From positions 8,071 to 72,070 of the forward strand of contig CAYRXT010000006.1 of NCBI GenBank assembly GCA_964428315.1: a DNA stretch of 64,000 nucleotides, written 5' to 3'. Positions 1,642 through 63,964 of this stretch are shown here, one piece after another. Both the position numbers and the translations under genes were made by a program. This DNA comes from an uncultured Planctomycetales bacterium (GTDB lineage: Bacteria > Omnitrophota > Gorgyraeia > Zapsychrales > CAYRXT01). The notes under the pieces are model-generated. The model was not told the DNA's origin. It did no database searches and saw only the letters and a list, made by a program, of their open reading frames with translations. Each line of letters opens with the position of its first letter. Within the stretch, counting starts at the first letter, position 1.

Positions 1642-3621
1642 ATGAATGAGAAGAGGACAGAAAAAGAAAGCCTGTATTACTGGCTTGTGAGGATCTTCGC
1701 AGCCTTTATCCGCGCCATGCCTCTCGGGATGGCCTTGTGGACGGGCCGCCGCGTCGGGTCAGCCGGGTATTACCTTGATAAAAAACACCGCGCCCTGGCG
1801 TATTCCAACCTCAAGGTGGCCTTTGCCCGGGAAAAAAAGCCAGCAGAAATCCGCAGAATCGTTAAAAGACTGTTCAAAAGTTACGGGCAGAACATGATCG
1901 AGCTTCTGCGCCTGCCGCTGATCACGCCGGAAAAAGTGCGAGAGCACGTCCGGATCGAAGGCGAAGAACATCTCCAGGCCGCCTTGGACGAACGCAAAGG
2001 CGTGATCATGCTGGCCATGCATTTCGGGAGCTGGGAGCTCGCGAGTTTTTCCTGTTCGACCCTGGGGGCGGTTTACAAAGTGATGGTCAAACCTCAGACC
2101 CGGTATTCGCGCCTGGACGAATTGCTCAATTCCTACCGGGAGGCCGGGGGGTCGGTTGTGCTGGAGCGGGGCATGGGCACCCGCGAGGTCATCAAGAGCC
2201 TGAAGAACAACGAGATTATCGGAATGGTCGTGGACCAGGGCGGAAAGGACGGGATGCTCGTCGACTTTTTCGGCCGGCAGGCCTCGCTTTCGGTCGGGGC
2301 CGTCCGCATGGGGCTGAAACTTGAGACGCCGATCTGTTTTTCGATCATTATCCGCGAGGGACGCCGTCATCGCCTGGTCATCCATCCGCCCTTTCATCTG
2401 GTGAAGACGGGCGACGCGGAAAGCGACGTCCGGTGCAATCTGCAGAGCGTGGTGCGGATAATGGAAGATTATATCCGGCGGTATCCATGGGAATACATGT
2501 GGTTTTACAAGATCTGGAAATACTCCAAAGAGGCGAATATCGTCGTTCTGGACGACGGGAGGAAAGGGCATCTCAACCAGGCCCTGTGCATGTCCCAAAA
2601 GATCGAGGAGGCCCTGCGCGAAAGAGGGATTAACAGTTGTACCATGACAGAGGAAGTGGTTTTCAAGAACAGGTTTTCGTCCCTGATGATCACTCTGATC
2701 AGCTTTCTTTCTCACCCCAGTTTTTGCCAGGGACGTCTGCGTCTGCTGAAATGGTTTCTTAAAAGGGAATGCTTTCTTCGTCTGGTGAAGGTGAAGGCCG
2801 ATTATGTCATTTCATGCGGGTCGACCGCGGCCGGCGTCAACTTCCTTCTGTCGCGCGATCATGCCGCCAAGAGCGTGTCCATTCTCCGGCCCGGCATACT
2901 CGGGCTCCGGCGCTTTGACGCCGTTGTCCTGCCCGTGCATGAAAAGGTTGCCGCTCGCCGGTCTGCGAAAACACGTATTGTCCGCACCCACGGGGCCCCG
3001 AACTTGGTCACGAAAGACGCGATGTCCCGCGCCGCGGACGGACTCAAGGACCGCTTCGAAAACCTTCGGTTTGGGCGTACCACAAAGATCGGGATATTGA
3101 TCGGCGGAGACACAAAGAAAAAGGCCATTATGAACTCCAAAATCCGCCTGTTGCTCAGGCAGATCAAAGAGGTGTCGGAACGGGTGGACGCGGATATCCT
3201 GCTCACCACTTCGCGGCGGACGCCGGCTCCACTCGAGGCCTTCGTTAAAAGGGAGTTCAAAGGATTTTCCCGCTGTCAGCTGATGATTATCCCGTCGGAG
3301 GACGATGTCCCCCATGCCGTGAACGGCATATTGGGATTGGCCGATATCCTGGTTGTGACCGGTGACAGCATTTCGATGGTCTCGGAGGCGGCCTCATCCG
3401 GCAGGAATACGATCGTACTCCCCTTGGAGGACAGATCCCCGGGCTCCGCGTCCCGTCGGCACGCGGTCTTTTTAGAACATCTGAGCCGGCAGGGTTATAT
3501 CCTGCTCGGCGAGGAAAAGCATCTGTTGACGAACATTATCGAGATGGTGAAGAAGAAAATCCGCACCAAACAACTCGATGATAATGCCGTTCTCCTGGAT
3601 GCCGCAAGACACATTATCTGA
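1642..3621 (+). CDS. Fusion protein: N-terminal Kdo2-lipid A late acyltransferase (LpxL/LpxM/HtrB family), C-terminal ELM1/DUF1022 (GT-B-like) domain
   Basis: 659 aa. The N-terminal ~300 aa align to LpxL, including the C-terminal PWEYMWFYKIWK signature and the MHFGSWELA region. Residues ~300-659 begin IVVLDDGRKGHLNQAL, typical of the ELM1/DUF1022 family. Confidence 0.75.
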   Translation: MNEKRTEKESLYYWLVRIFAAFIRAMPLGMALWTGRRVGSAGYYLDKKHRALAYSNLKVAFAREKKPAEIRRIVKRLFKSYGQNMIELLRLPLITPEKVREHVRIEGEEHLQAALDERKGVIMLAMHFGSWELASFSCSTLGAVYKVMVKPQTRYSRLDELLNSYREAGGSVVLERGMGTREVIKSLKNNEIIGMVVDQGGKDGMLVDFFGRQASLSVGAVRMGLKLETPICFSIIIREGRRHRLVIHPPFHLVKTGDAESDVRCNLQSVVRIMEDYIRRYPWEYMWFYKIWKYSKEANIVVLDDGRKGHLNQALCMSQKIEEALRERGINSCTMTEEVVFKNRFSSLMITLISFLSHPSFCQGRLRLLKWFLKRECFLRLVKVKADYVISCGSTAAGVNFLLSRDHAAKSVSILRPGILGLRRFDAVVLPVHEKVAARRSAKTRIVRTHGAPNLVTKDAMSRAADGLKDRFENLRFGRTTKIGILIGGDTKKKAIMNSKIRLLLRQIKEVSERVDADILLTTSRRTPAPLEAFVKREFKGFSRCQLMIIPSEDDVPHAVNGILGLADILVVTGDSISMVSEAASSGRNTIVLPLEDRSPGSASRRHAVFLEHLSRQGYILLGEEKHLLTNIIEMVKKKIRTKQLDDNAVLLDAARHII

Positions 3622-3642: not shown

Positions 3643-5736
3643 ATGAACATTCTTCAGATATTACCGGAACTGAACGTCGGCGGTGTGGAGACCGGGACTC
3701 TCGACTTTGCCCGCTACCTGGTCCAAAACGGCCACCGGGCCGTTGTTGTCTCTCACGGCGGCGTCCTGCTGAAGGAACTGCAGTCCATGGGAGTCCAACA
3801 TTACACCCTGCCCGTGCACAAAAAATCTCTCTGGACGATCCTGCGGTGCATCCGTGAATTTGAGGATATCCTTCGAGCCGAGAAAGTCGATGTCGTTCAT
3901 GCCCGCTCCCGTATCCCGGCGTGGATCGCCTTCTTCGCCTGCCGGAGGACGAAAACGGCCTTTGTCACCACGTGTCACGGTTATTACGGGAATCATATCC
4001 TTTCCCGCGTCATGGGCTGGTCCAAACTGGTGATCGTGCCCAGCGGGGTGATAGGGAGGCACATGATCGAAGACTTCGGCGTCCTGCCGGAAAATATCCG
4101 CCGGATTCCTCGCAGTGTCGACCTGTCAAAATTTGACGGCTTGGCGAAGACCAAGCTCAAGAATGAGTGCGTCGTGACGATGATCGGACGCATCACGCCG
4201 CTCAAGGGGCATAAATATTTCTTGAAGGCCATGGCCAGGGTAATCCGTTCCATCCCGTATTTGAAGATATGGATCGTCGGGGACTCCCTGCGCGGGAAGG
4301 AATCGTACAGACGGGAACTCGAACTTTTGGTCAAGCGTCTGGGTTTGGGCGACTATGTCGAGTTCCTGGGAAGCAGGCAGGATATCCCCGAGATACTCGG
4401 CAGGACCAACGTCCTGGTCCTTTCCACGGTAACGGAGGAGGCCTTCGGGCGGGTGATCCTTGAGGCCCAGGCGTCCGGCGTCCCCGTGGTTGCGACAAAA
4501 GTCGGCGGAGTGGTGGAAATTATCGAAGACGGACGCACCGGTCTATTGGTCCTTCCCAGAGACCCGGAGGCCATGGCCCGGTCCGTCATCCGCCTGCTTA
4601 AAGACGAAAAGCTGGCGGCCTCGTTGACATCCCGGGCCCGCGAAAAACTTCAGCGGGAATTCACCCTCGAGCGGATGGCGGAAAGGACGCTGTCGGTTTA
4701 CGAGGAGCTTCTGGGGCTTATGAGCATACTGGTTATCAAGATCAGCTCTCTGGGTGACGTGATCCTGGCCACACCGTCTCTTAAGGCCTTGAAGGAAAAA
4801 TTTCCCCGGGCGAAGATCTATTGTGTCGTCGGCAAGGACTCGCGCGCTGTCCTCCAGCGTTGTCCTTACCTGGACGATCTTATCGTATTCGATCCGAAAG
4901 AAAAGGATAAGGGATGGGGCGGGCTTCTGAAATTTTCGCGCAAGCTCCGTAAATACAAATTTGATCTGGTCGTGGATTTCCAGAACAACAGGACCAGCCA
5001 CTGGATGTCTTTTTTGGTGTTCCCCGTTGACAGCTACGGGTACGACAACGGGAAATGGGGATTCCTCCTTAGCCAAAGAATCAAGGATGACCAGAGAAAC
5101 CTCCCGCCGGTGGCGCACCAGTTCCGTATCCTGCATGGCCTGGGTATACCCTACAGGCCGGACTGCCGGCTGGAATTCTGGCTGAACGCGCAAGACGAAA
5201 AAAGGACGCAGGCGTTGATGGAATCCGAGTGGGTCGCCAAAAACCAGAAAGTTATCGGCATCAATCTTTCCGCGTCTAAAGAGTGGATCACTAAAAATTG
5301 GCCTCTCAAATATATGGCCGAGCTTTGCGATCAGCTCGCCCAAAAAGGCCTGCGTGTCATCCTGACGGGAATGGAAAAAGACAGGGACACGGCGCATGAG
5401 CTGTCCATGATGACGAAGGCCAAACCCGCCTCCTTCGTAGGGAAGACCGACGTCCTTGAGCTGGCTGTCCTGATCAGGCGCTGTGCCGTTTACGTGACGC
5501 CGGATTCGGCCCCTCTGCATATCGCCGCGGCCGTCAAGACGCCTTTTGTCGCCCTGTTCGGCCCCACCGATGCCCGCCGCCACATGCCGCCGGCCGGGCG
5601 TTGCACCGTCCTTCAAAAGGACCTTAAATGCTCCCCCTGCTACAGCACCTACTGCAAAGTGGCCACGCATGCCTGCATGCGGGAGATCACGCCCTCCCAG
5701 GTGCTCCACGAGATCGAGAAGCTTATGACGTCGTAA
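3643..5736 (+). CDS. Bifunctional glycosyltransferase: N-terminal GT4 (family-1 glycosyltransferase) fused to C-terminal GT9 (LPS heptosyltransferase-like)
   Basis: 697 aa. The N-terminal half has a GT4 fold (EAQASGVPVVAT motif). The C-terminal half starts MSILVIKISSLGDVILATPSLKALKEKFP and ends with the GPTD/CSPC region typical of ADP-heptose:LPS heptosyltransferases. Confidence 0.75.
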   Translation: MNILQILPELNVGGVETGTLDFARYLVQNGHRAVVVSHGGVLLKELQSMGVQHYTLPVHKKSLWTILRCIREFEDILRAEKVDVVHARSRIPAWIAFFACRRTKTAFVTTCHGYYGNHILSRVMGWSKLVIVPSGVIGRHMIEDFGVLPENIRRIPRSVDLSKFDGLAKTKLKNECVVTMIGRITPLKGHKYFLKAMARVIRSIPYLKIWIVGDSLRGKESYRRELELLVKRLGLGDYVEFLGSRQDIPEILGRTNVLVLSTVTEEAFGRVILEAQASGVPVVATKVGGVVEIIEDGRTGLLVLPRDPEAMARSVIRLLKDEKLAASLTSRAREKLQREFTLERMAERTLSVYEELLGLMSILVIKISSLGDVILATPSLKALKEKFPRAKIYCVVGKDSRAVLQRCPYLDDLIVFDPKEKDKGWGGLLKFSRKLRKYKFDLVVDFQNNRTSHWMSFLVFPVDSYGYDNGKWGFLLSQRIKDDQRNLPPVAHQFRILHGLGIPYRPDCRLEFWLNAQDEKRTQALMESEWVAKNQKVIGINLSASKEWITKNWPLKYMAELCDQLAQKGLRVILTGMEKDRDTAHELSMMTKAKPASFVGKTDVLELAVLIRRCAVYVTPDSAPLHIAAAVKTPFVALFGPTDARRHMPPAGRCTVLQKDLKCSPCYSTYCKVATHACMREITPSQVLHEIEKLMTS

Positions 5737-5776: not shown

Positions 5777-6880
5777 ATGAAACCCATGAAGATCCTTATC
5801 CTGACCACCCATTTGAATGCAGGCGGTATTGCCACCTATGTCACGAGTCTGGCACGGGGATTGACCCATGAAGACCAGGGCGTGTTTGTGGCCAGCAGCG
5901 GCGGCAGCAAGGAGCAGGCCCTCGAGGCTATGCAGGTTGAGCACATCCCCCTAGACATCCGCACCAAGTGCGAGGTCAGCGCCAAGGTCTACCGCGCCTT
6001 GCGTCCGGTCGTTAACTGCTTGCGGGAAAATCATATACAGGTCATTCATGCTCAAACCCGGGTAACGCAGGTCGTCGCCCAACTGGCAAGCCAGATCACC
6101 GGCGTGCCCTGTGTGACGACGTGCCACGGTTTTTTCAAGAAAAGACTGGTCCGCAGACTTATGCCATGCTGGGGGCATGCGGTCATTGCTATTTCTCAGG
6201 CCGTGGCGGACCATCTTCATAAAGATTTTGGCGTTGAAGAGAAAAGAATCCACCTTGTCCATAGCGGCGTGGATGTGGCGGACTATCCTGATCTCAGCGA
6301 AGACATTAAGATGGTGGAAAAAAGAAAATTAAGTTTGAAGACCGGCCCTGTCATCGGGATTATCGCACGGCTTTCGGATGTCAAAGGCCACCGTTATCTG
6401 ATCGAGGCCATGCCCCGGATTATTCAGGACTACGGCGACGCCAGTCTCCTTATCGCTGGACAGGGCAGGCTCGAAGAGGAATTGCGGGCAATCGTGAGAC
6501 GGATGCACCTGGAGAATCATATTGTGTTCCATCCCTTTTTCAGTTCCAACGCCGATGTCCTGCCTTTGCTGGATGTTTTTGTCATGCCTTCCCTGCAGGA
6601 GGGACTGGGGTTGTCCGTGATGGAGGCCCAGGCCGCCGGTTTGCCTGTGGTGGCGTCGTGTGTGGGCGGGCTTCCGACTTTGGTTGAAGAAGGAAAGACG
6701 GGATTGCTGGTTCCGCCCGGATCTCCCGAACGGATAGCGCAAGCGGTGCTGGAGATCCTGCGAGACCGGGAAAAGGCCAGAGAAATGGGCCGGACCGCAC
6801 GAGAGTTTATTAAAAACAATTTTTCTATGCAACAAATGGCAAGGGAAACCCTGGAAGTTTACCGGAAGGTTGCCGGATGA
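5777..6880 (+). CDS. Glycosyltransferase family 4 (LPS core glycosyltransferase)
   Basis: 367 aa. GT4 motifs (EGLGLSVMEAQAAGLPVVAS). Lies within the LPS core cluster. Confidence 0.8.
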   Translation: MKPMKILILTTHLNAGGIATYVTSLARGLTHEDQGVFVASSGGSKEQALEAMQVEHIPLDIRTKCEVSAKVYRALRPVVNCLRENHIQVIHAQTRVTQVVAQLASQITGVPCVTTCHGFFKKRLVRRLMPCWGHAVIAISQAVADHLHKDFGVEEKRIHLVHSGVDVADYPDLSEDIKMVEKRKLSLKTGPVIGIIARLSDVKGHRYLIEAMPRIIQDYGDASLLIAGQGRLEEELRAIVRRMHLENHIVFHPFFSSNADVLPLLDVFVMPSLQEGLGLSVMEAQAAGLPVVASCVGGLPTLVEEGKTGLLVPPGSPERIAQAVLEILRDREKAREMGRTAREFIKNNFSMQQMARETLEVYRKVAG

Positions 6881-6919
6881 TTAGGAATAAGGGATAAGGG
6901 ATTGGGTCACTAAACCAGC

Positions 6920-59696: not shown

Positions 59697-60334
59697 TAAG
59701 AATCAAGATATGCGGGATAACCAAGAGTTCCGATGCCTTTGAAGCGGTGCGTCTGGGGGCCTGGGCGCTGGGATTCAATTTTTATCGCAAGAGCCCGCGG
59801 TACATTAACCCCTTGGAGGCAAAGAAGATCATTGTCCGGCTTCCGCCTTTCGTTACACCGGTTGGGCTTTTTGTCAACACTCCGGCGGAAATTATCCGCC
59901 GCCGGGCCGCCTTTTGCGGCATTAACACGGTTCAACTCCACGGGGATGAGCCGGCGTCGCAGTGCCGATCGCTTAAACCGTTGAAAGTGATCAAGGCATT
60001 CCGCTTGCGTAAGGGATTCGATTTCGCTTCGCTGGAACGTTACGATGTCTCGGCCTTTCTTTTTGACACACTTAATACCGGAGGCCTTTACGGCGGCAGT
60101 GGAGAAGTCTTTGACTGGAACATTCTGAAAAGGGCCGGGAGCGTCGGACGACCGGTCATTCTGGCCGGGGGGATCCACAGCGGGAACCTTCGGCAGGCCT
60201 ATGAGTTACTGAGGCCCTATGCCGTCGATGTCTGCAGCGGAATCGAAACAAGGCCAGGTAAAAAGGACCCGAAACGCATGAACACGCTGTTTCGTATAGC
60301 CAGGGAGGCCGGGATTGGGAAGAGTCATCTTTGA
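59693..60334 (+). CDS. trpF: Phosphoribosylanthranilate isomerase
   Basis: 213 aa. IKICGIT N-terminus and (beta/alpha)8 PRAI family features. Confidence 0.85.
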   Translation: MIRIKICGITKSSDAFEAVRLGAWALGFNFYRKSPRYINPLEAKKIIVRLPPFVTPVGLFVNTPAEIIRRRAAFCGINTVQLHGDEPASQCRSLKPLKVIKAFRLRKGFDFASLERYDVSAFLFDTLNTGGLYGGSGEVFDWNILKRAGSVGRPVILAGGIHSGNLRQAYELLRPYAVDVCSGIETRPGKKDPKRMNTLFRIAREAGIGKSHL

Positions 60335-60986
60335 TATCGAGACAGTAGGTCAGGATTTCGAACTGCTGGATGACGCCTCCAAGGAGTATTTTTTGAAATT
60401 TGCCGATACACCCGAAAAGGCGGAGGAGGCCAAGAACAGCCTGAGCTTTTATCCCTTGACCGCGCAGGTGGTCGCCATAGGCATGCTCGAAGTGGAATCC
60501 TCCCGCGGGGCGGTCTATTTTCAGAATAATAACGGTTCTCCGGAGAAATTCACGGAAGACGGGATAGTTTATATGTCAGGGTCAGAAAAAGATATATTGA
60601 GTCAGTTTTGGAAAAAACTCGCCCAGTTCGACAAATTTATCACCTTCAATGGACGACTATTCGATTGTCCCTTTGTCATGATTCGTTCGGCCGTCAACGG
60701 TATCCGTTCCAGCCGGAATATCATGCCCTATCGTTACTCTCACGATCAGCATGTGGATCTCGCCGATCAGTTGTCTTTTTACGACGCCATGCGCCGTAAA
60801 TTCAGCCTGCATATGTGGTGCCGGGCCTTCGGGATCGCCAGCCCAAAAGAGGAGGGAATGACGGGGCTCCAGGTCAAGGATTACTACCACAATGGACGTT
60901 ATCAGGACATCGCCCGGTATTGTTTTCGCGATATCCGTTCCACGAAAGAGCTTTTCTTGTATTGGGACAAATACCTGCGGTTTTAG
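60315..60986 (+). CDS. Predicted DEDD-type 3'-5' exonuclease (RNase H-like fold, PolB-exonuclease-related)
   Basis: 223 aa. ExoI-like motif VIFDIETVG at the N-terminus, ITFNGxxFDxPF (ExoII-like), and YxxxD in HDQHVDLAD. Overlaps the trpF stop by 20 nt. Confidence 0.6.
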   Translation: MGRVIFDIETVGQDFELLDDASKEYFLKFADTPEKAEEAKNSLSFYPLTAQVVAIGMLEVESSRGAVYFQNNNGSPEKFTEDGIVYMSGSEKDILSQFWKKLAQFDKFITFNGRLFDCPFVMIRSAVNGIRSSRNIMPYRYSHDQHVDLADQLSFYDAMRRKFSLHMWCRAFGIASPKEEGMTGLQVKDYYHNGRYQDIARYCFRDIRSTKELFLYWDKYLRF

Positions 60987-61058
60987 ATTGTTGGACAATC
61001 GTAAGTATTTTAATGTCAAATGGTTTTATTCGATTAGAAAAAATATGCGGTTCCTTGG

Positions 61059-61087
61059 TTGTCCTTCATGTAGGAATATGTTATAGT
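61059..61087 (+). promoter_or_regulatory. Sigma70-type promoter (TTGTCC-17nt-TATAGT) for the candidate sRNA
   Basis: Lies in the AT-rich island 60990-61095. -35 at 61059-61064, -10 at 61082-61087. The predicted TSS at ~61094 coincides with the first base of the RNA terminal helix. Confidence 0.55.
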
Positions 61088-61093
61088 TGTACT

Positions 61094-61312
61094 AGCCGAT
61101 AAAGGTAAACCCGGAGAAATCCGGGGACACAAAACCACAGGCCTACGTTACTTGTAGCCGGGAAGGTCCGAGGCAACAGAGGGCGGACAATTCGTTACCG
61201 AATAGGTATGGCGAATAGTGATAAGGTGGCTGGGTTGCCGAAGAGCTGTCGGGGGCTAACATCCCCATCTTTATCGGCTCTTTTTTTTGCCCTGAAGAAG
61301 GGCTTTTTTTTT
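61094..61312 (+). ncRNA. Candidate structured small RNA of unassigned family (~190-220 nt)
   Basis: A 10-bp terminal helix, GCCGATAAAG (61095-61104) with CTTTATCGGC (61269-61278), closes a multi-stem domain. The domain contains a GNRA hairpin, CCCGGA-GAAA-TCCGGG (61110-61125). It also contains the GGGGG-CTAACAT-CCCC hairpin (61251-61266). Other local stems include ATTCG-TTAC-CGAAT and GGCAAC...GTTGCC. The RNA is followed by a U8 tract and then a second hairpin plus U9. The region has no convincing ORF and an upstream promoter. Confidence 0.5.
61289..61312 (+). terminator. Intrinsic terminator (GCCCT-GAAGA-AGGGC + T9)
   Basis: GC-rich 5-bp stem at 61289-61303 followed by a run of nine T (61304-61312). 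Preceded by a T8 run directly after the sRNA terminal helix. Confidence 0.6.
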
Positions 61313-61549
61313 GTGATGCCTCCCTGAAGGCACGTTCAAAGGACCAGATCCCGTTTGCCTTGCGCGCAGGTTTTACCCCGCCAACATAAAGCCACATCCG
61401 TAAGGGTTTGGATGGATGGCTTTCTGCCGGCGTCTGTGGCACACGCAGGGGTGGGCCGGTTTCCGCACCCGTCCGGACTCCGCGGAACGGAGAAGAACAA
61501 GAAACCACGTCCGTCAGGGCGTGGATCTTCACTTTTGGTCAAAAAAAAA

Positions 61550-61578
61550 TTCATTTCCCTCCTAAAATGGGTTATAAT
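61550..61578 (+). promoter_or_regulatory. Candidate promoter with perfect -10 TATAAT, upstream A9 tract (UP-like) and weak -35 (TTCATT)
   Basis: TATAAT at 61573-61578 and an A-tract at 61541-61549. RBS AAGGAAG lies 4 nt before the ATG at 61622. Confidence 0.4.
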
Positions 61579-61621
61579 ACACACTTCCAACCGCTGGGAA
61601 ACCCGCAGATAAGGAAGATGT

Positions 61622-61924
61622 ATGTCGGATACTCTGGTACGCATATTTTCGAGTGTGGACCTTCAGGAAGTGAAGGAGCATCTTCTTGTTTACGGCACCC
61701 TGGCGGCCAGCTGTGCACAATGCAACGAGATGGGCCTGAAGCTTGACATGGATAAGTGTCCCAAATGCCAGACCGAATTCCGGTATATCACGTTCCGCAA
61801 TCATAAAGAACATATGCCCAAAATACTGAAGCTATACACCGCCCGCCCGGGCATCAAGATTATCGACTACGAGGACTACAAGAAGCTAACCGGAAAACGT
61901 AAGGCCGAGGAGTTGTTCGAATGA
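61622..61924 (+). CDS. Small Cys4 zinc-ribbon protein, hypothetical
   Basis: 100 aa. CAQC-x11-CPKC motif and a good RBS. Its stop overlaps the start of the downstream M20 peptidase (ATGA). Confidence 0.5.
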   Translation: MSDTLVRIFSSVDLQEVKEHLLVYGTLAASCAQCNEMGLKLDMDKCPKCQTEFRYITFRNHKEHMPKILKLYTARPGIKIIDYEDYKKLTGKRKAEELFE

Positions 61925-63063
61925 TCAGGGAAAAACGGCTGGTCAAAACGCTTCGGGACCTCATCCGGATCAATTCGGAAAATCCACCGGGCCGGGAGAA
62001 AAAGATTGCCGATTTTCTAGGAAAAGAATTTGCCGCTTTAGGACTGGGCGTCCGCGCCTACTCATTCGCAAAAAACAGGCCCAATATTGTCGCCACGTTC
62101 AGGGGCAAAGGCAAAAGACAGACCGCCTCTGCGGAGGCGCTTTTGTTGACGCCCCATTATGATACGGTGCCTGCCGGCAAGGGGTGGAGCGTCGATCCCT
62201 TCGGCGGCCGCATAATGAACGGCAAGATTTTTGGACGGGGGGCCACTGACGATAAATGCAATGTCGCGGCTTCCCTGGAGGTTGTCCGCTCGTTGGTGGA
62301 GGACGGTTTTCGCCCCGACAAGGATCTTATCGTCGCAGCAACCTCAGACGAGGAGACGGGCAGCCGATTCGGCATCATCCCGCTTCTGGAGAAAAAGATG
62401 GTCCGGCCGAAATGGGCTCTGATCCTTGACGCCAACGAGTGTGACGCCATCATCGCGCAGAAGGGATTGATTCACGGCCGGATCCGGATTTTCGGGAAGA
62501 AGGCGCACGGTGCCTACAACTGGCGGGGGGTTAACGCCATCGAGGCCGCCGCCCGGATCATCGCGAAGTTGAAAAGGCACCGCTTCCCGCACCGCAAACA
62601 CCGGCTTCTGCACGCGCCGACAATGAACATCGGCGTCATCCACGGCGGTGACAAGACGAATATCGTGGCCGATTTCTGCGAGTTCCATTTCGATACCCGT
62701 TACCTGCCCGGGACAGATCCCCGGGATGTCCTGAAAGACATCAAAAGGATTGTCCGCCGGGAGATTCGGACGTTTGAGATTGAGACCGACGATATCCAGT
62801 ATCCGTATGAAATACGCAGGGACCATCCTCTGGTCCGTTTGTATACGAAGAGTGCCAAGACCGAAGGGCAGAAGGCCCTTTTGAAGGGCAGTGAGGGCGC
62901 CACGGTCATAAGCTTTTTCAAGAAGATGAACATACCGGCCATCGCGACGGGATACGGGACGCATAATACAGCGCACATTACCGACGAGTTCGCGAAGGTT
63001 GATATCCTGGTAAAAGGCGCGCGGGTGCTGGAAGCCTTCGTGAAGGGCTATAACGGTTTATGA
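61921..63063 (+). CDS. M20-family metallopeptidase (ArgE/DapE-like deacylase)
   Basis: 380 aa. Metal-binding motifs HYDTVP, GRGATDDK and SDEETG, and a dimerisation domain. Confidence 0.8.
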   Translation: MIREKRLVKTLRDLIRINSENPPGREKKIADFLGKEFAALGLGVRAYSFAKNRPNIVATFRGKGKRQTASAEALLLTPHYDTVPAGKGWSVDPFGGRIMNGKIFGRGATDDKCNVAASLEVVRSLVEDGFRPDKDLIVAATSDEETGSRFGIIPLLEKKMVRPKWALILDANECDAIIAQKGLIHGRIRIFGKKAHGAYNWRGVNAIEAAARIIAKLKRHRFPHRKHRLLHAPTMNIGVIHGGDKTNIVADFCEFHFDTRYLPGTDPRDVLKDIKRIVRREIRTFEIETDDIQYPYEIRRDHPLVRLYTKSAKTEGQKALLKGSEGATVISFFKKMNIPAIATGYGTHNTAHITDEFAKVDILVKGARVLEAFVKGYNGL

Positions 63064-63181
63064 GACCGATGGGACATGGCATCATTTCGGCTACCGCTTT
63101 CTCGTTTTTACTGACCCGTTTTGATGTCCCGCTCAAGCTTTTTTTTAAGAACGTATTCATGCGGGGCTATTTGCACAAGCG

Positions 63182-63964
63182 ATGAAAAAACTCCTTCTTT
63201 CCATTTTCGTTGGGTGTGTTCTCCTGGCCGGCGGCGCGGTACTGTTGTTGGGCATGAAAGGGAAGAAGGGGTATGACGTCCCGGCGGCGGGAGGGGTGGT
63301 CTCCCCTGGAACACAATTCGACTTCCCCAGGGAAACCGTAGTCTATGACATCAAATCCCTTCTCGGGTTGAAGGTCGGCGAGGCGCGGTTAAGCTTTGAG
63401 GGGGCGACAACGCTCGAGGACAGGCACGTGATCCTGGTCACCTTTGTATCACGTGCTGTCAATGTCTACGACGAGGAAAAGATTTATGCCGATCCCGAGA
63501 CCCTCTATCCGGTCCGTGTCGAGCGCGATCTGGACATCTGGGGCAAGAAGGAAAAGATCACGGAATACTATGACCAGGACAAAGGAACGGTGCGCATCGT
63601 TAAGCGCGCCGGGGAAAGGGCGGAAGAACAGGTCCTGGAAGGCCGGGCGCCGGTGGACAACATCTACTGCTTTATCTACCGCTACAGAAAAGAAGGCGCA
63701 TTCACTGTCGGCGAATCGTTTAGGATGAATCTGCCGACCAAGGAAGTGACCGTCGAACTTAAGAAAGAAACATTGCTGGCGGCCGCAGGCAAGGAATGGG
63801 AATCGTATTACATGGAGACTGTACCGAGCGAGTACCGTCTCTGGTTCGCCAGGGGCGAGAAAAAGATTCCCCTGCGCATCGACGGGTCATCGGGGCTGAA
63901 AAAGGTCTCCATGGTGATGCAGGAGTATCAAACGCCCCCGGAAGAGAAAGACGGAACACAGTGA
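63182..63964 (+). CDS. DUF3108-family protein with N-terminal signal/anchor
   Basis: 260 aa. Hydrophobic N-terminus, then a beta-rich domain with the YxxxxLxGxxVGEARLSF-type start that I associate with DUF3108. Confidence 0.55.
   Translation: MKKLLLSIFVGCVLLAGGAVLLLGMKGKKGYDVPAAGGVVSPGTQFDFPRETVVYDIKSLLGLKVGEARLSFEGATTLEDRHVILVTFVSRAVNVYDEEKIYADPETLYPVRVERDLDIWGKKEKITEYYDQDKGTVRIVKRAGERAEEQVLEGRAPVDNIYCFIYRYRKEGAFTVGESFRMNLPTKEVTVELKKETLLAAAGKEWESYYMETVPSEYRLWFARGEKKIPLRIDGSSGLKKVSMVMQEYQTPPEEKDGTQ

Follow-up and report, generated by a model that had tools for sequence, protein, structure and literature searches.

A predicted class-I c-di-GMP riboswitch between its own promoter and tandem terminators, upstream of a p100-M20-DUF3108 operon of an Omnitrophota-like bacterium

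The element described here is a non-coding RNA gene in a stretch of 64,000 nucleotides (nt) of bacterial DNA (contig CAYRXT010000006.1), the whole of which is called the window. On its 5' side lie trpD, trpC, trpF and then a gene for a PolB-like 3'-5' exonuclease (60315-60986, Pfam DNA_pol_B_exo2). On its 3' side follow the genes of p100, an M20-family deacylase and a DUF3108 protein. A first-pass annotation had reported an AT-rich island after the exonuclease gene and, within it, a promoter-to-terminator unit for a structured RNA of unrecognised family. The island was recovered with a GC content of 0.31 for positions 60987-61093 against 0.49-0.55 in the flanking genes. The RNA itself is almost certainly a class-I cyclic di-GMP (c-di-GMP) riboswitch, also known as GEMM-I, and is predicted to bind c-di-GMP. 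The features of the unit and of the operon behind it are collected in the table.

Table. Features of the riboswitch unit and the genes behind it (positions in the window)
Feature	Position	Strand	Sequence or basis
Sigma-70-type promoter	61059-61087	+	-35 TTGTCC 61059-61064, 17-nt spacer, -10 TATAGT 61082-61087
c-di-GMP-I (GEMM-I) aptamer	61095-61243	+	Rfam covariance model, full-length
Closing helix	61095-61104 / 61269-61278	+	GCCGATAAAG / CTTTATCGGC, perfect complement, 174 nt apart
P1	C61097-G61240, G61098-C61239	+	covariance-model alignment
P2	61105-61130	+	GAAA loop 61116-61119; alignment and covariation
GAAA hairpin, part of P2	61110-61125	+	CCCGGA-GAAA-TCCGGG; sequence
P3	61133-61143 / 61225-61236	+	alignment and covariation
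Tetraloop-receptor halves CCUACG / UAAGG	61142-61147 / 61222-61226	+	sequence
Lineage-specific P3 extension, 81 nt	61144-61224	+	insertion of ~75 nt in the P3 loop in the Rfam alignment
Linker	61241-61267	+	AAGAGCUG 61241-61248 continues the P1 3' side; alternative local partner of the closing strand
Small GGGGG/CCCC hairpin in the linker	61251-61266	+	GGGGGCUAACAUCCCC; sequence
Proposed terminator T1	61268-61288	+	closing strand U-CUUUAUCGGC-U 61268-61279, then U-tract UCUUUUUUUU 61279-61288 (TCTTTTTTTT in DNA)
Second intrinsic terminator T2, aptamer-independent	61289-61312	+	hairpin GCCCTGAAGAAGGGC 61289-61303 (GCCCUGAAGAAGGGC in RNA), then T9/U9 61304-61312
Downstream -10 element	61573-61578	+	TATAAT; weak -35 TTCATT 61550-61555; below promoter-scan threshold
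Shine-Dalgarno sequence and p100 start	ATG 61622	+	AAGGAAG, then ATG; sequence
p100, 100-amino-acid CxxC...CPxC zinc-ribbon-like protein	61622-61924	+	
M20 ArgE/DapE-family deacylase	61921-63063	+	
DUF3108	63182-63964	+	

A promoter scan of positions 60500-62200 yielded exactly one sigma-70-like site, that of the RNA. It scored 9 out of 12 and in addition has the TG of a TGn extended -10 element at 61079-61080, which bears out the near-consensus promoter of the first-pass annotation. In 38 of the 40 related RNAs introduced below a promoter of the form cTTGaaa-N17-TGnTATAnT was recognised by eye with 6-7 nt between the end of its -10 element and the first paired base, so that transcription would start right at the foot of the closing helix. 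The predicted transcription start, placed from promoter spacing, is about A61094 and agrees with the earlier placement. The minimum free energy (MFE) of the 223-nt RNA was -81.3 kcal/mol with z = -3.16, a value that none of 200 shuffled sequences reached; the MFE structure includes the long-range helix. The terminal helix of 10 base pairs and the GAAA and GGGGG/CCCC hairpins had all been correctly located in the first pass. Likewise, no open reading frame (ORF) with a ribosome-binding site came to light inside the unit: the only ORF, of 39 amino acids (61208-61327), lacks a Shine-Dalgarno sequence and overlaps the variable P3 extension, where the RNA is least conserved. The interval is a complete promoter-to-terminator transcription unit for a structured, non-coding RNA.

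The identity of the RNA was obtained with cmscan. In the whole window a single match exceeded the threshold, namely RF03167 of the c-di-GMP-I (GEMM-I) clan CL00126 at 61095-61243 on the + strand, with 60.9 bits (gathering score 59), an E-value of 6.6e-12 and model positions 1-80 of 80 covered. The first-pass annotation had itself said that a confident Rfam hit would move the RNA to a known family, and because such a match exists the label of an unrecognised family is dropped. Its partial echoes of RNase P P4, signal recognition particle (SRP) RNA and cobalamin elements came to nothing: in 60950-61650 there was no Rfam match at E<=10 to RNase P, SRP, cobalamin or any ribozyme, and the other permissive entries were at chance level (ncS025, E 7.1; DnaX, E 5.7). 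A novel stable small RNA or ribozyme-like RNA outside the known families had been suggested by the promoter-to-terminator architecture and the multi-branch fold. We give it practically no credence in view of the full-length, significant match of the window and all relatives to a curated riboswitch family. The multi-branch fold with a GNRA loop does exist; yet it is no signature of a novel RNA, but the standard P2 tetraloop, P3 receptor and three-way junction of GEMM-I. Thus the RNA is of a known kind, which any routine Rfam scan would label.

The covariance-model alignment assigned the ligand contacts G61104 to G20 (model position 10), A61131 to A47 (position 37) and C61238 to C92 (position 75). 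The equivalence of A61131 with A47 is one that we assume on the basis of the Vc2 structure. In the c-di-GMP-I pocket G20 reads G-alpha and C92 pairs with G-beta, while a G20A change confers specificity for cyclic GMP-AMP (c-GAMP) or dual specificity (PMC6140456). A c-GAMP riboswitch (GEMM-Ib) was rejected, as it needs an A at the position of G20, where the window has G61104. Judged by its nucleotides the ligand pocket is of the canonical c-di-GMP type. Furthermore, one related RNA (locus L132) is located directly upstream of a PilZ-domain gene.

RF03167 represents the rare c-di-GMP-I-GGC variant, possibly with altered ligand specificity, and was the family reported for the window, although with 60.9 bits only just over its gathering score. 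The overall scaffold, too, is close to the consensus of the RF03167 model. That consensus, however, has a G at position 37 between P2 and P3, where A61131 of the window leaves a blank in the match line; we take position 37 to be both the A47 equivalent and the site of the 'G' that defines GGC, which is our own reading of the consensus and which we found stated in no paper. All 13 syntenic Omnitrophota RNAs were labelled RF01051 with 36-66 bits (threshold 35). The RNA of L001 (4904-5054) obtained 53.3 bits for RF03167 in E-value mode, i.e. less than 59, but 60.9 bits for RF01051 in gathering mode. The RF01051 score of the window is not displayed, since the Rfam table gives only the best-scoring family of a clan. 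We regard the GGC label as an artefact because clan competition in Rfam keeps the smaller E-value and not the higher bit score, and membership in the variant family is very improbable. Both models fit this RNA, and variant-family labels near threshold need to be checked at the defining nucleotides.

Relatives were collected through the exonuclease, a protein search of species-representative genomes yielding 63 loci (these and all further loci are designated L with a number). The closest of these, with 55-71% identity, were metagenome-assembled genomes (MAGs) of Candidatus Omnitrophota, some deposited as Planctomycetales or Planctomycetia; the host of the riboswitch unit is an Omnitrophota-like bacterium. 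In Logan its contig has the identifier SRR7048225_15616. By blastn and nhmmer, the searches proposed in the first pass, the RNA was found full-length in 12 of the 63 loci, and Rfam labelled 13 as c-di-GMP-I. A class of 40 members was then assembled by a metagenome scan with the 17-mer of the 5' strand and a covariance model, R1, built from 17 sequences. Searching from p100 homologues added two more members, L188 and L189. The promoter, the 5' and closing strands and the terminators are recurrent features of the 40 loci.

In a model-guided alignment of the 40 sequences 98.1% of the cells were paired and 15 of 32 pairs had changed on both sides; the alignment was fitted to the model, and its metagenome members had been picked with a fixed 5' strand. 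All five measures of covariation lay above 500 of 500 shuffles, and shifted-register controls came nowhere near. The covariation resides in P2 and P3, where 4 of 5 and 10 of 15 pairs, respectively, had changed on both sides, whereas the two pairs of P1 are uninformative because they are invariant. RNAalifold with 17 sequences recovered the closing helix, P2 and P3.

Most relatives carry the canonical 11-nt tetraloop receptor CCUAAG/UAUGG in P3, of which the window has a variant (CCUACG/UAAGG), and docking of the P2 GAAA tetraloop into this receptor is a plausible tertiary contact. Beyond the receptor the P3 extension forms a three-way junction with P3a (UUAC/GUGA), P3b (GCC/GGC), the purine-rich junction GGGAAGG and the hairpins GUCCG...CGGAC and UACC-GAAUA-GGUA. 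In the members of the p100 type, independent MFE folds of about 10 relatives gave a common three-way junction with GGGAAGG or CAAAAGG as the purine-rich joiner. For the window the homology-guided fold of the extension has -14.0 kcal/mol compared to -20.2 kcal/mol for the MFE fold, and is thus feasible but not that of lowest energy. The extension is peripheral because other members of the class (L073, L092, L097 and L111) have a short, plain P3. Extra hairpins of 50-70 nt in or before the internal loop of P2 were seen in some members and large insertions in the loop of the second terminator in others (L010 4778-5093, L145 495-751, L082 1562-1791, L115 2243-2420). The GEMM-I scaffold is tolerant of many peripheral additions.

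The gene order around the RNA is conserved as exonuclease, RNA, YkgJ-like or M48 gene, p100, M20, a gene for a 147-amino-acid membrane protein, and DUF3108. In all 11 genome loci that carry the p100/M20/DUF3108 cluster the RNA is located upstream of and co-directional with it. No RNA was found in the Omnitrophota loci without the p100 cluster (L012, L020, L026), nor in the exonuclease loci of Nitrospirota or others. The RNA of L009 is 1.9 kb away from the exonuclease gene and 110 nt from p100; RNA and p100 have moved together, leaving the exonuclease gene behind. The first downstream gene was co-directional in 35 of 35 loci. In the class as a whole the downstream genes comprised GH1 beta-glucosidases (about 14 metagenome loci), p100 operons, genes of YkgJ-like CxxCxxCC proteins, an M48 peptidase, PilZ, a cNMP-binding/AAA_31 protein and RsmE. 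A classical attenuator layout, with T1 only and a gene directly behind it, was seen in L132 (PilZ), L011 and L014. In the window the p100-M20-DUF3108 operon (61622-63964) is the candidate regulated target. For p100 no Pfam or NCBIfam family above threshold and no relative in PDB was found, and a word-based search retrieved only 5 homologues. A motif scan for enzymes of c-di-GMP metabolism gave one false positive, a GH57 branching enzyme, the 64 kb of the window being too small for the scan to be informative.

Two observations on the neighbourhood may be added. One Omnitrophota MAG (L003 4851-4979) has a divergent GEMM-I aptamer (RF01051, 38 bits) after the exonuclease gene, with a conventional terminator that overlaps the 3' strand of the aptamer (GCUGCC/GGCAGC and a U-tract); in place of the p100 operon a gene for a 1194-amino-acid protein with an S8 subtilase domain follows. 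In L004 (4699-6686) and L005 (6976-8217) ORFs after DUF3108 were seen by eye to have a TrpB-like N-terminus (…KGHFGEFGG…VPETLM…), and a further ORF of L004 is, again by eye, maybe TrpA. If these ORFs are TrpB and TrpA, the block from the exonuclease to DUF3108 would be inserted in a split trp operon (trpD-C-F ... trpB-A).

What sets the unit apart is the helix that encloses the aptamer. It reaches 12 pairs with A61094-U61279 and G61105.U61268, and its 5' arm, the first 12 nt of the transcript, comprises the 5' strand of P1, J1/2 and the ligand-contacting G61104. The closing strand was present in 40 of 40 members with pair-preserving changes only and 96.9% of cells paired. The 12-pair stem, a duplex of about -17 kcal/mol, abuts UCUUUUUUUU (U8), and a tail of at least 6 U in 9 nt was found in 29 of the 40 members. 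We infer that closing helix and U-tract constitute a ligand-sensitive intrinsic terminator, T1. As its 5' partner the closing strand could take either the initial 12 nt of the transcript or the start of the linker (AAGAGCUG with CGGCUCUU in the window). As judged by eye the linker start covaries with the terminator tail across members (AAGAG/CUCUU, GUGAG/CUCGC). The helix-closed fold was 12.3 kcal/mol more stable than the aptamer-compatible fold; therefore ligand capture is plausible only during transcription. Two metagenome GEMM-I riboswitches (L077 302-417 and L114 3896-4026) have the identical 5' strand GCCGAUAAAGGUAAAC; they are short type-2 aptamers with ordinary local terminators and lack the closing strand. 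Thus the 5' sequence is a feature of the aptamer in this lineage and the closing strand an added element of the platform.

T1 is followed at once by T2, and both elements of the tandem described in the first pass, the U-tract at 61279-61288 and the hairpin with T9, are conserved in relatives. A second hairpin with a U-run equivalent to T2 occurs in about 31 of 39 members and always where the T1 tail is weak. By inspection no convincing complement to the 5' arm of T2, i.e. no upstream antiterminator, was found in aptamer or linker.

Between T2 and the p100 promoter the window has a GC-rich spacer of 226 nt (61313-61540; GC 0.59 vs 0.31-0.38 in flanking intergenic DNA), which is bracketed by T9G (61304-61313) and CA9 (61540-61549) and holds two similar hairpin motifs CCACRTCCGTMAGGG at 61392-61406 and 61505-61519. 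The spacer has no counterpart in any related locus. Neither tblastn nor blastn detected similarity to the YkgJ-like gene that is placed there in relatives, thus a gene remnant was dismissed, and with a fold z-score of only -1.33 so was a structured RNA.

In the window p100 has a leader of about 40 nt with the AAGGAAG Shine-Dalgarno sequence. Of the 40 loci 22 have a strict TGnTATAAT within 250 nt downstream, corresponding to 2.25 per kb compared to a background of 0.073 per kb, a 31-fold enrichment. In the relatives its usual place is downstream of T2 and ahead of the first ORF, in many cases with 6-11 nt to the ATG. Such a spacing without Shine-Dalgarno sequence was observed in L004 (~3525-3536), L008 (~5069-5089) and L009 (~6872-6891), and likewise in L186 (2485-2505), L187 (1198-1216) and L188 (2167-2185). 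It implies that the predicted mRNAs are leaderless in these relatives, and leaderless expression may be common in this lineage. The p100 operons of L186 and L187 have no riboswitch, but use the same TGCTATAAT-N8-ATG arrangement; therefore the downstream promoter is autonomous and the riboswitch unit a modular addition. At the position of the riboswitch these two p100-M20-DUF3108 loci (L186 2330-2500, L187 1041-1213) have the terminator of the upstream gene, then a short conserved stretch TATATAGCGAAGAGGGAYTRAAAATCGCTGAAA..., a small hairpin and a T-run just before the leaderless promoter. The conserved stretch could be another small regulatory element.

On balance we favor conditional read-through of T1, damped by T2, into the p100 operon, a reading that we hold to be rather probable. 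Without c-di-GMP the long-range helix, or its local alternative via the linker start AAGAGCUG, would form and T1 would terminate transcription. When c-di-GMP is captured during transcription of the 25-nt linker, binding would lock the 5' strand and the linker start together in P1 and the pocket. Because the start of the linker continues the 3' strand of P1, the bound aptamer would pair both candidate 5' arms with each other. The closing strand would be left without a partner and RNA polymerase would pass T1, so that the RNA would probably act as an ON switch under kinetic control. Read-through would then meet the conserved, ligand-independent T2, which would scale the output down; if the terminators act multiplicatively, a constitutive T2 would lower the level and not the fold change. 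Transcripts that escape T2 would enter the p100-M20-DUF3108 operon, which has its own basal promoter. Both the presence of the RNA in all 11 genome loci with the p100 cluster and the T1-only members with a gene directly behind argue for read-through. A direct precedent for a ligand-sensitive T1 with a constitutive T2 is Bc1 of Bacillus thuringiensis, a c-di-GMP-I riboswitch with just this pair and no net response in vivo (PMC11218506).

Several points weigh against read-through control. The 'loop' of T1 would be a structured aptamer of 162 nt, and a standard terminator scan does not call T1. True compensatory changes are confined to the outermost pair of the closing helix (7 double changes); all others are one-sided and G.U-preserving, and the search pattern for the metagenomes had fixed the 5' strand. 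On the other hand, competition between helix and pocket is supported by L188, a member found via the protein and not by the DNA pattern: its 5' strand GCCGAUAAGGG has an A to G change that still allows a G.U pair, the closing strand being unaltered. A further objection is that 11 of the 40 members have a T1 tail poor in U despite a fully kept helix; therefore the helix must have a function besides termination. With the 5' strand blocked, a local hairpin still abutted the U-tract in 19-21 of 39 members, a split MFE result, and given these local hairpins in about half of the members T1 may be partly ligand-independent. T2 together with an autonomous downstream promoter is hard to square with simple attenuation. 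In addition, read-through transcripts may be poorly translated, since the downstream promoter of the relatives would give leaderless mRNAs. Finally, the upstream genes are on the same strand as well in 38 of 39 loci, so that co-directionality discriminates weakly for an action in cis.

The main rival of conditional read-through is a stand-alone, c-di-GMP-binding small RNA that is always terminated at T1 or T2 and does not read into the downstream operon at all. It could serve as a reservoir or buffer of c-di-GMP, as proposed for merRNA of Bdellovibrio, or as a ligand-gated, trans-acting RNA; in the T2-terminated bound form of the latter the invariant CCUUUAUCGGC strand would be accessible together with a U-rich stretch and the terminator hairpin. 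Its own near-consensus promoter with a start at the base of a helix between 5' and 3' end would suit such an RNA, as would the presence of at least one strong terminator in every case, T2 standing in wherever the T1 tail is weak. The autonomous promoter directly behind it in 22 of 40 loci, which drives riboswitch-less p100 operons too, and the retention of the helix where T1 cannot terminate point the same way, and there are precedents in merRNA (PMC3627812) and in Vc2 acting on a small RNA (bioRxiv 10.1101/617340). The first-pass verdict 'not a leader' is weakened by synteny and co-directionality with the p100 operon in 11 of 11 loci, but kept alive by T2 and the separate downstream promoter. 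The tight linkage to certain downstream genes, namely the p100 cluster and, in about 14 metagenome loci, GH1, speaks against a free RNA, and so do an orientation that is always that of the neighbours and the members without T2 or a separate promoter before the gene (L132, PilZ). Moreover, the preference of 12.3 kcal/mol for the closed form would make the released RNA a very poor post-transcriptional binder, and the first 400 nt downstream were not enriched in complementary targets of the released strand (mean z -0.19). Pairing of the released closing strand with the downstream leader or ribosome-binding site in cis was rejected, as the duplexes were no better than shuffled ones; the best of the window, at the p100 ribosome-binding site, had z -0.68. 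Weighing these data we consider the stand-alone RNA unlikely, though it has to be reckoned with. More speculatively, Omnitrophota-like bacteria might have a family of small-RNA genes, self-contained and gated by c-di-GMP, to which the unit belongs, or the unit might mediate riboswitch-controlled interference with a leaderless promoter, either of which is doubtful. Co-transcriptional capture of the ligand would then choose between a T1-terminated 'closed' RNA with paired ends and a T2-terminated 'open' RNA, which would expose CCUUUAUCGGC beside the U-rich stretch and the terminator hairpin and could act in trans. A possible target would be the identical 5' strand of other GEMM-I riboswitches of the lineage (L077 and L114 share GCCGAUAAAGG); alternatively the RNA would be a c-di-GMP reservoir like merRNA. 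In the related case of interference conditional read-through would repress the adjacent leaderless promoter.

Less probable than the stand-alone RNA is a platform that is insensitive to the ligand or of the OFF type. In the insensitive version either 5' arm, the 5' strand or the linker, would give a hairpin at the U-tract and T1 would terminate regardless; in the OFF version ligand binding would favor the compact local hairpin and raise termination. Either way the main effect of the unit would be to shield the downstream promoter from upstream transcription, i.e. that of the trp-exonuclease genes, and the scan indeed found no other + strand terminator from the exonuclease stop codon (60986) to T2 save a weak linker hairpin inside the unit. 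The aptamer-compatible fold of the window still makes AAGAGCUG/CGGCUCUU next to U6. The covariation of linker and tail, the local pairing up to the tail in about half of the members and the finding that Bc1 is locked OFF in vivo (PMC11218506) fit as well. Yet, the linker start (from A61241-G61243 onward) continues the P1 3' strand, so that a bound aptamer should hold the linker. That the pocket is conserved and covaries in 40 members implies that ligand sensing is under selection and has an output, and the helix that occludes the G20 equivalent is the only universally conserved element of the platform. Thus we judge an insensitive or OFF-type platform improbable and retain conditional read-through as the preferred reading.

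These predictions indicate c-di-GMP sensing in uncultured Omnitrophota-like bacteria, with the p100-M20-DUF3108 operon, GH1 beta-glucosidases, YkgJ-like proteins and PilZ as candidate regulated genes. The layout of the 40 loci, i.e. a 5'-end helix that occludes the pocket, a constitutive second terminator and an autonomous, often leaderless promoter, is not explained by simple attenuation. Bc1 in Bacillus has been reported to pose the same puzzle, and a related one arises with merRNA in Bdellovibrio. With a set of natural variants that have or lack a T1 tail, T2 or the downstream promoter, the purpose of a 'terminated' riboswitch would become testable. Within the searchable literature we found no description of the riboswitches of this lineage or of the layout of closing helix, T2 and promoter.

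Compared with GEMM-I riboswitches of the Vc2 type (Vibrio cholerae; RF01051) the RNA has the same three-helix junction, the P2 GAAA tetraloop and P3 receptor of type 1 GEMM, the equivalents of G20, A47 and C92, scores above the threshold of the covariance model and, in one member, an association with PilZ. It differs by a P1 of only 2-4 pairs, by the 81-nt extension of P3 with its three-way junction, by the pairing of the extreme 5' end including the G20 equivalent with a strand about 170 nt downstream, and by having its own promoter, two terminators and then another promoter. In the pbuE/ydhL adenine riboswitch, which is of the ON type, the 5' arm of the terminator is part of the aptamer, and ligand bound during transcription keeps this arm and prevents termination. 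There, however, it is the 3' half of the aptamer that doubles as the terminator arm, in a local hairpin, while here the 5' terminus does so and the whole aptamer lies within the terminator.

The massively expressed riboswitch RNA (merRNA) of Bdellovibrio bacteriovorus likewise combines a GEMM-I aptamer with independent transcription and termination, and has been proposed to bind c-di-GMP itself and not to control a downstream ORF (PMC3627812). It is 445 nt in length without a conserved downstream ORF (PMC3627812), while here a conserved co-directional operon follows; assignment to the merRNA type, with no conserved ORF downstream, was rejected for this reason. Bc1 of the Bacillus cereus group belongs to another phylum and has another sequence. 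Its T1 is a local hairpin and not a helix around the aptamer, no separate promoter follows T2, and its T2 region interacts with the ribosome-binding site (PMC11218506). Yet, Bc1 shares with the RNA described here two Rho-independent terminators in series, tens of nt apart, behind a GEMM-I aptamer; the first overlaps or competes with the aptamer and the second is ligand-independent (PMC11218506), properties that in the present RNA are read from its sequence.

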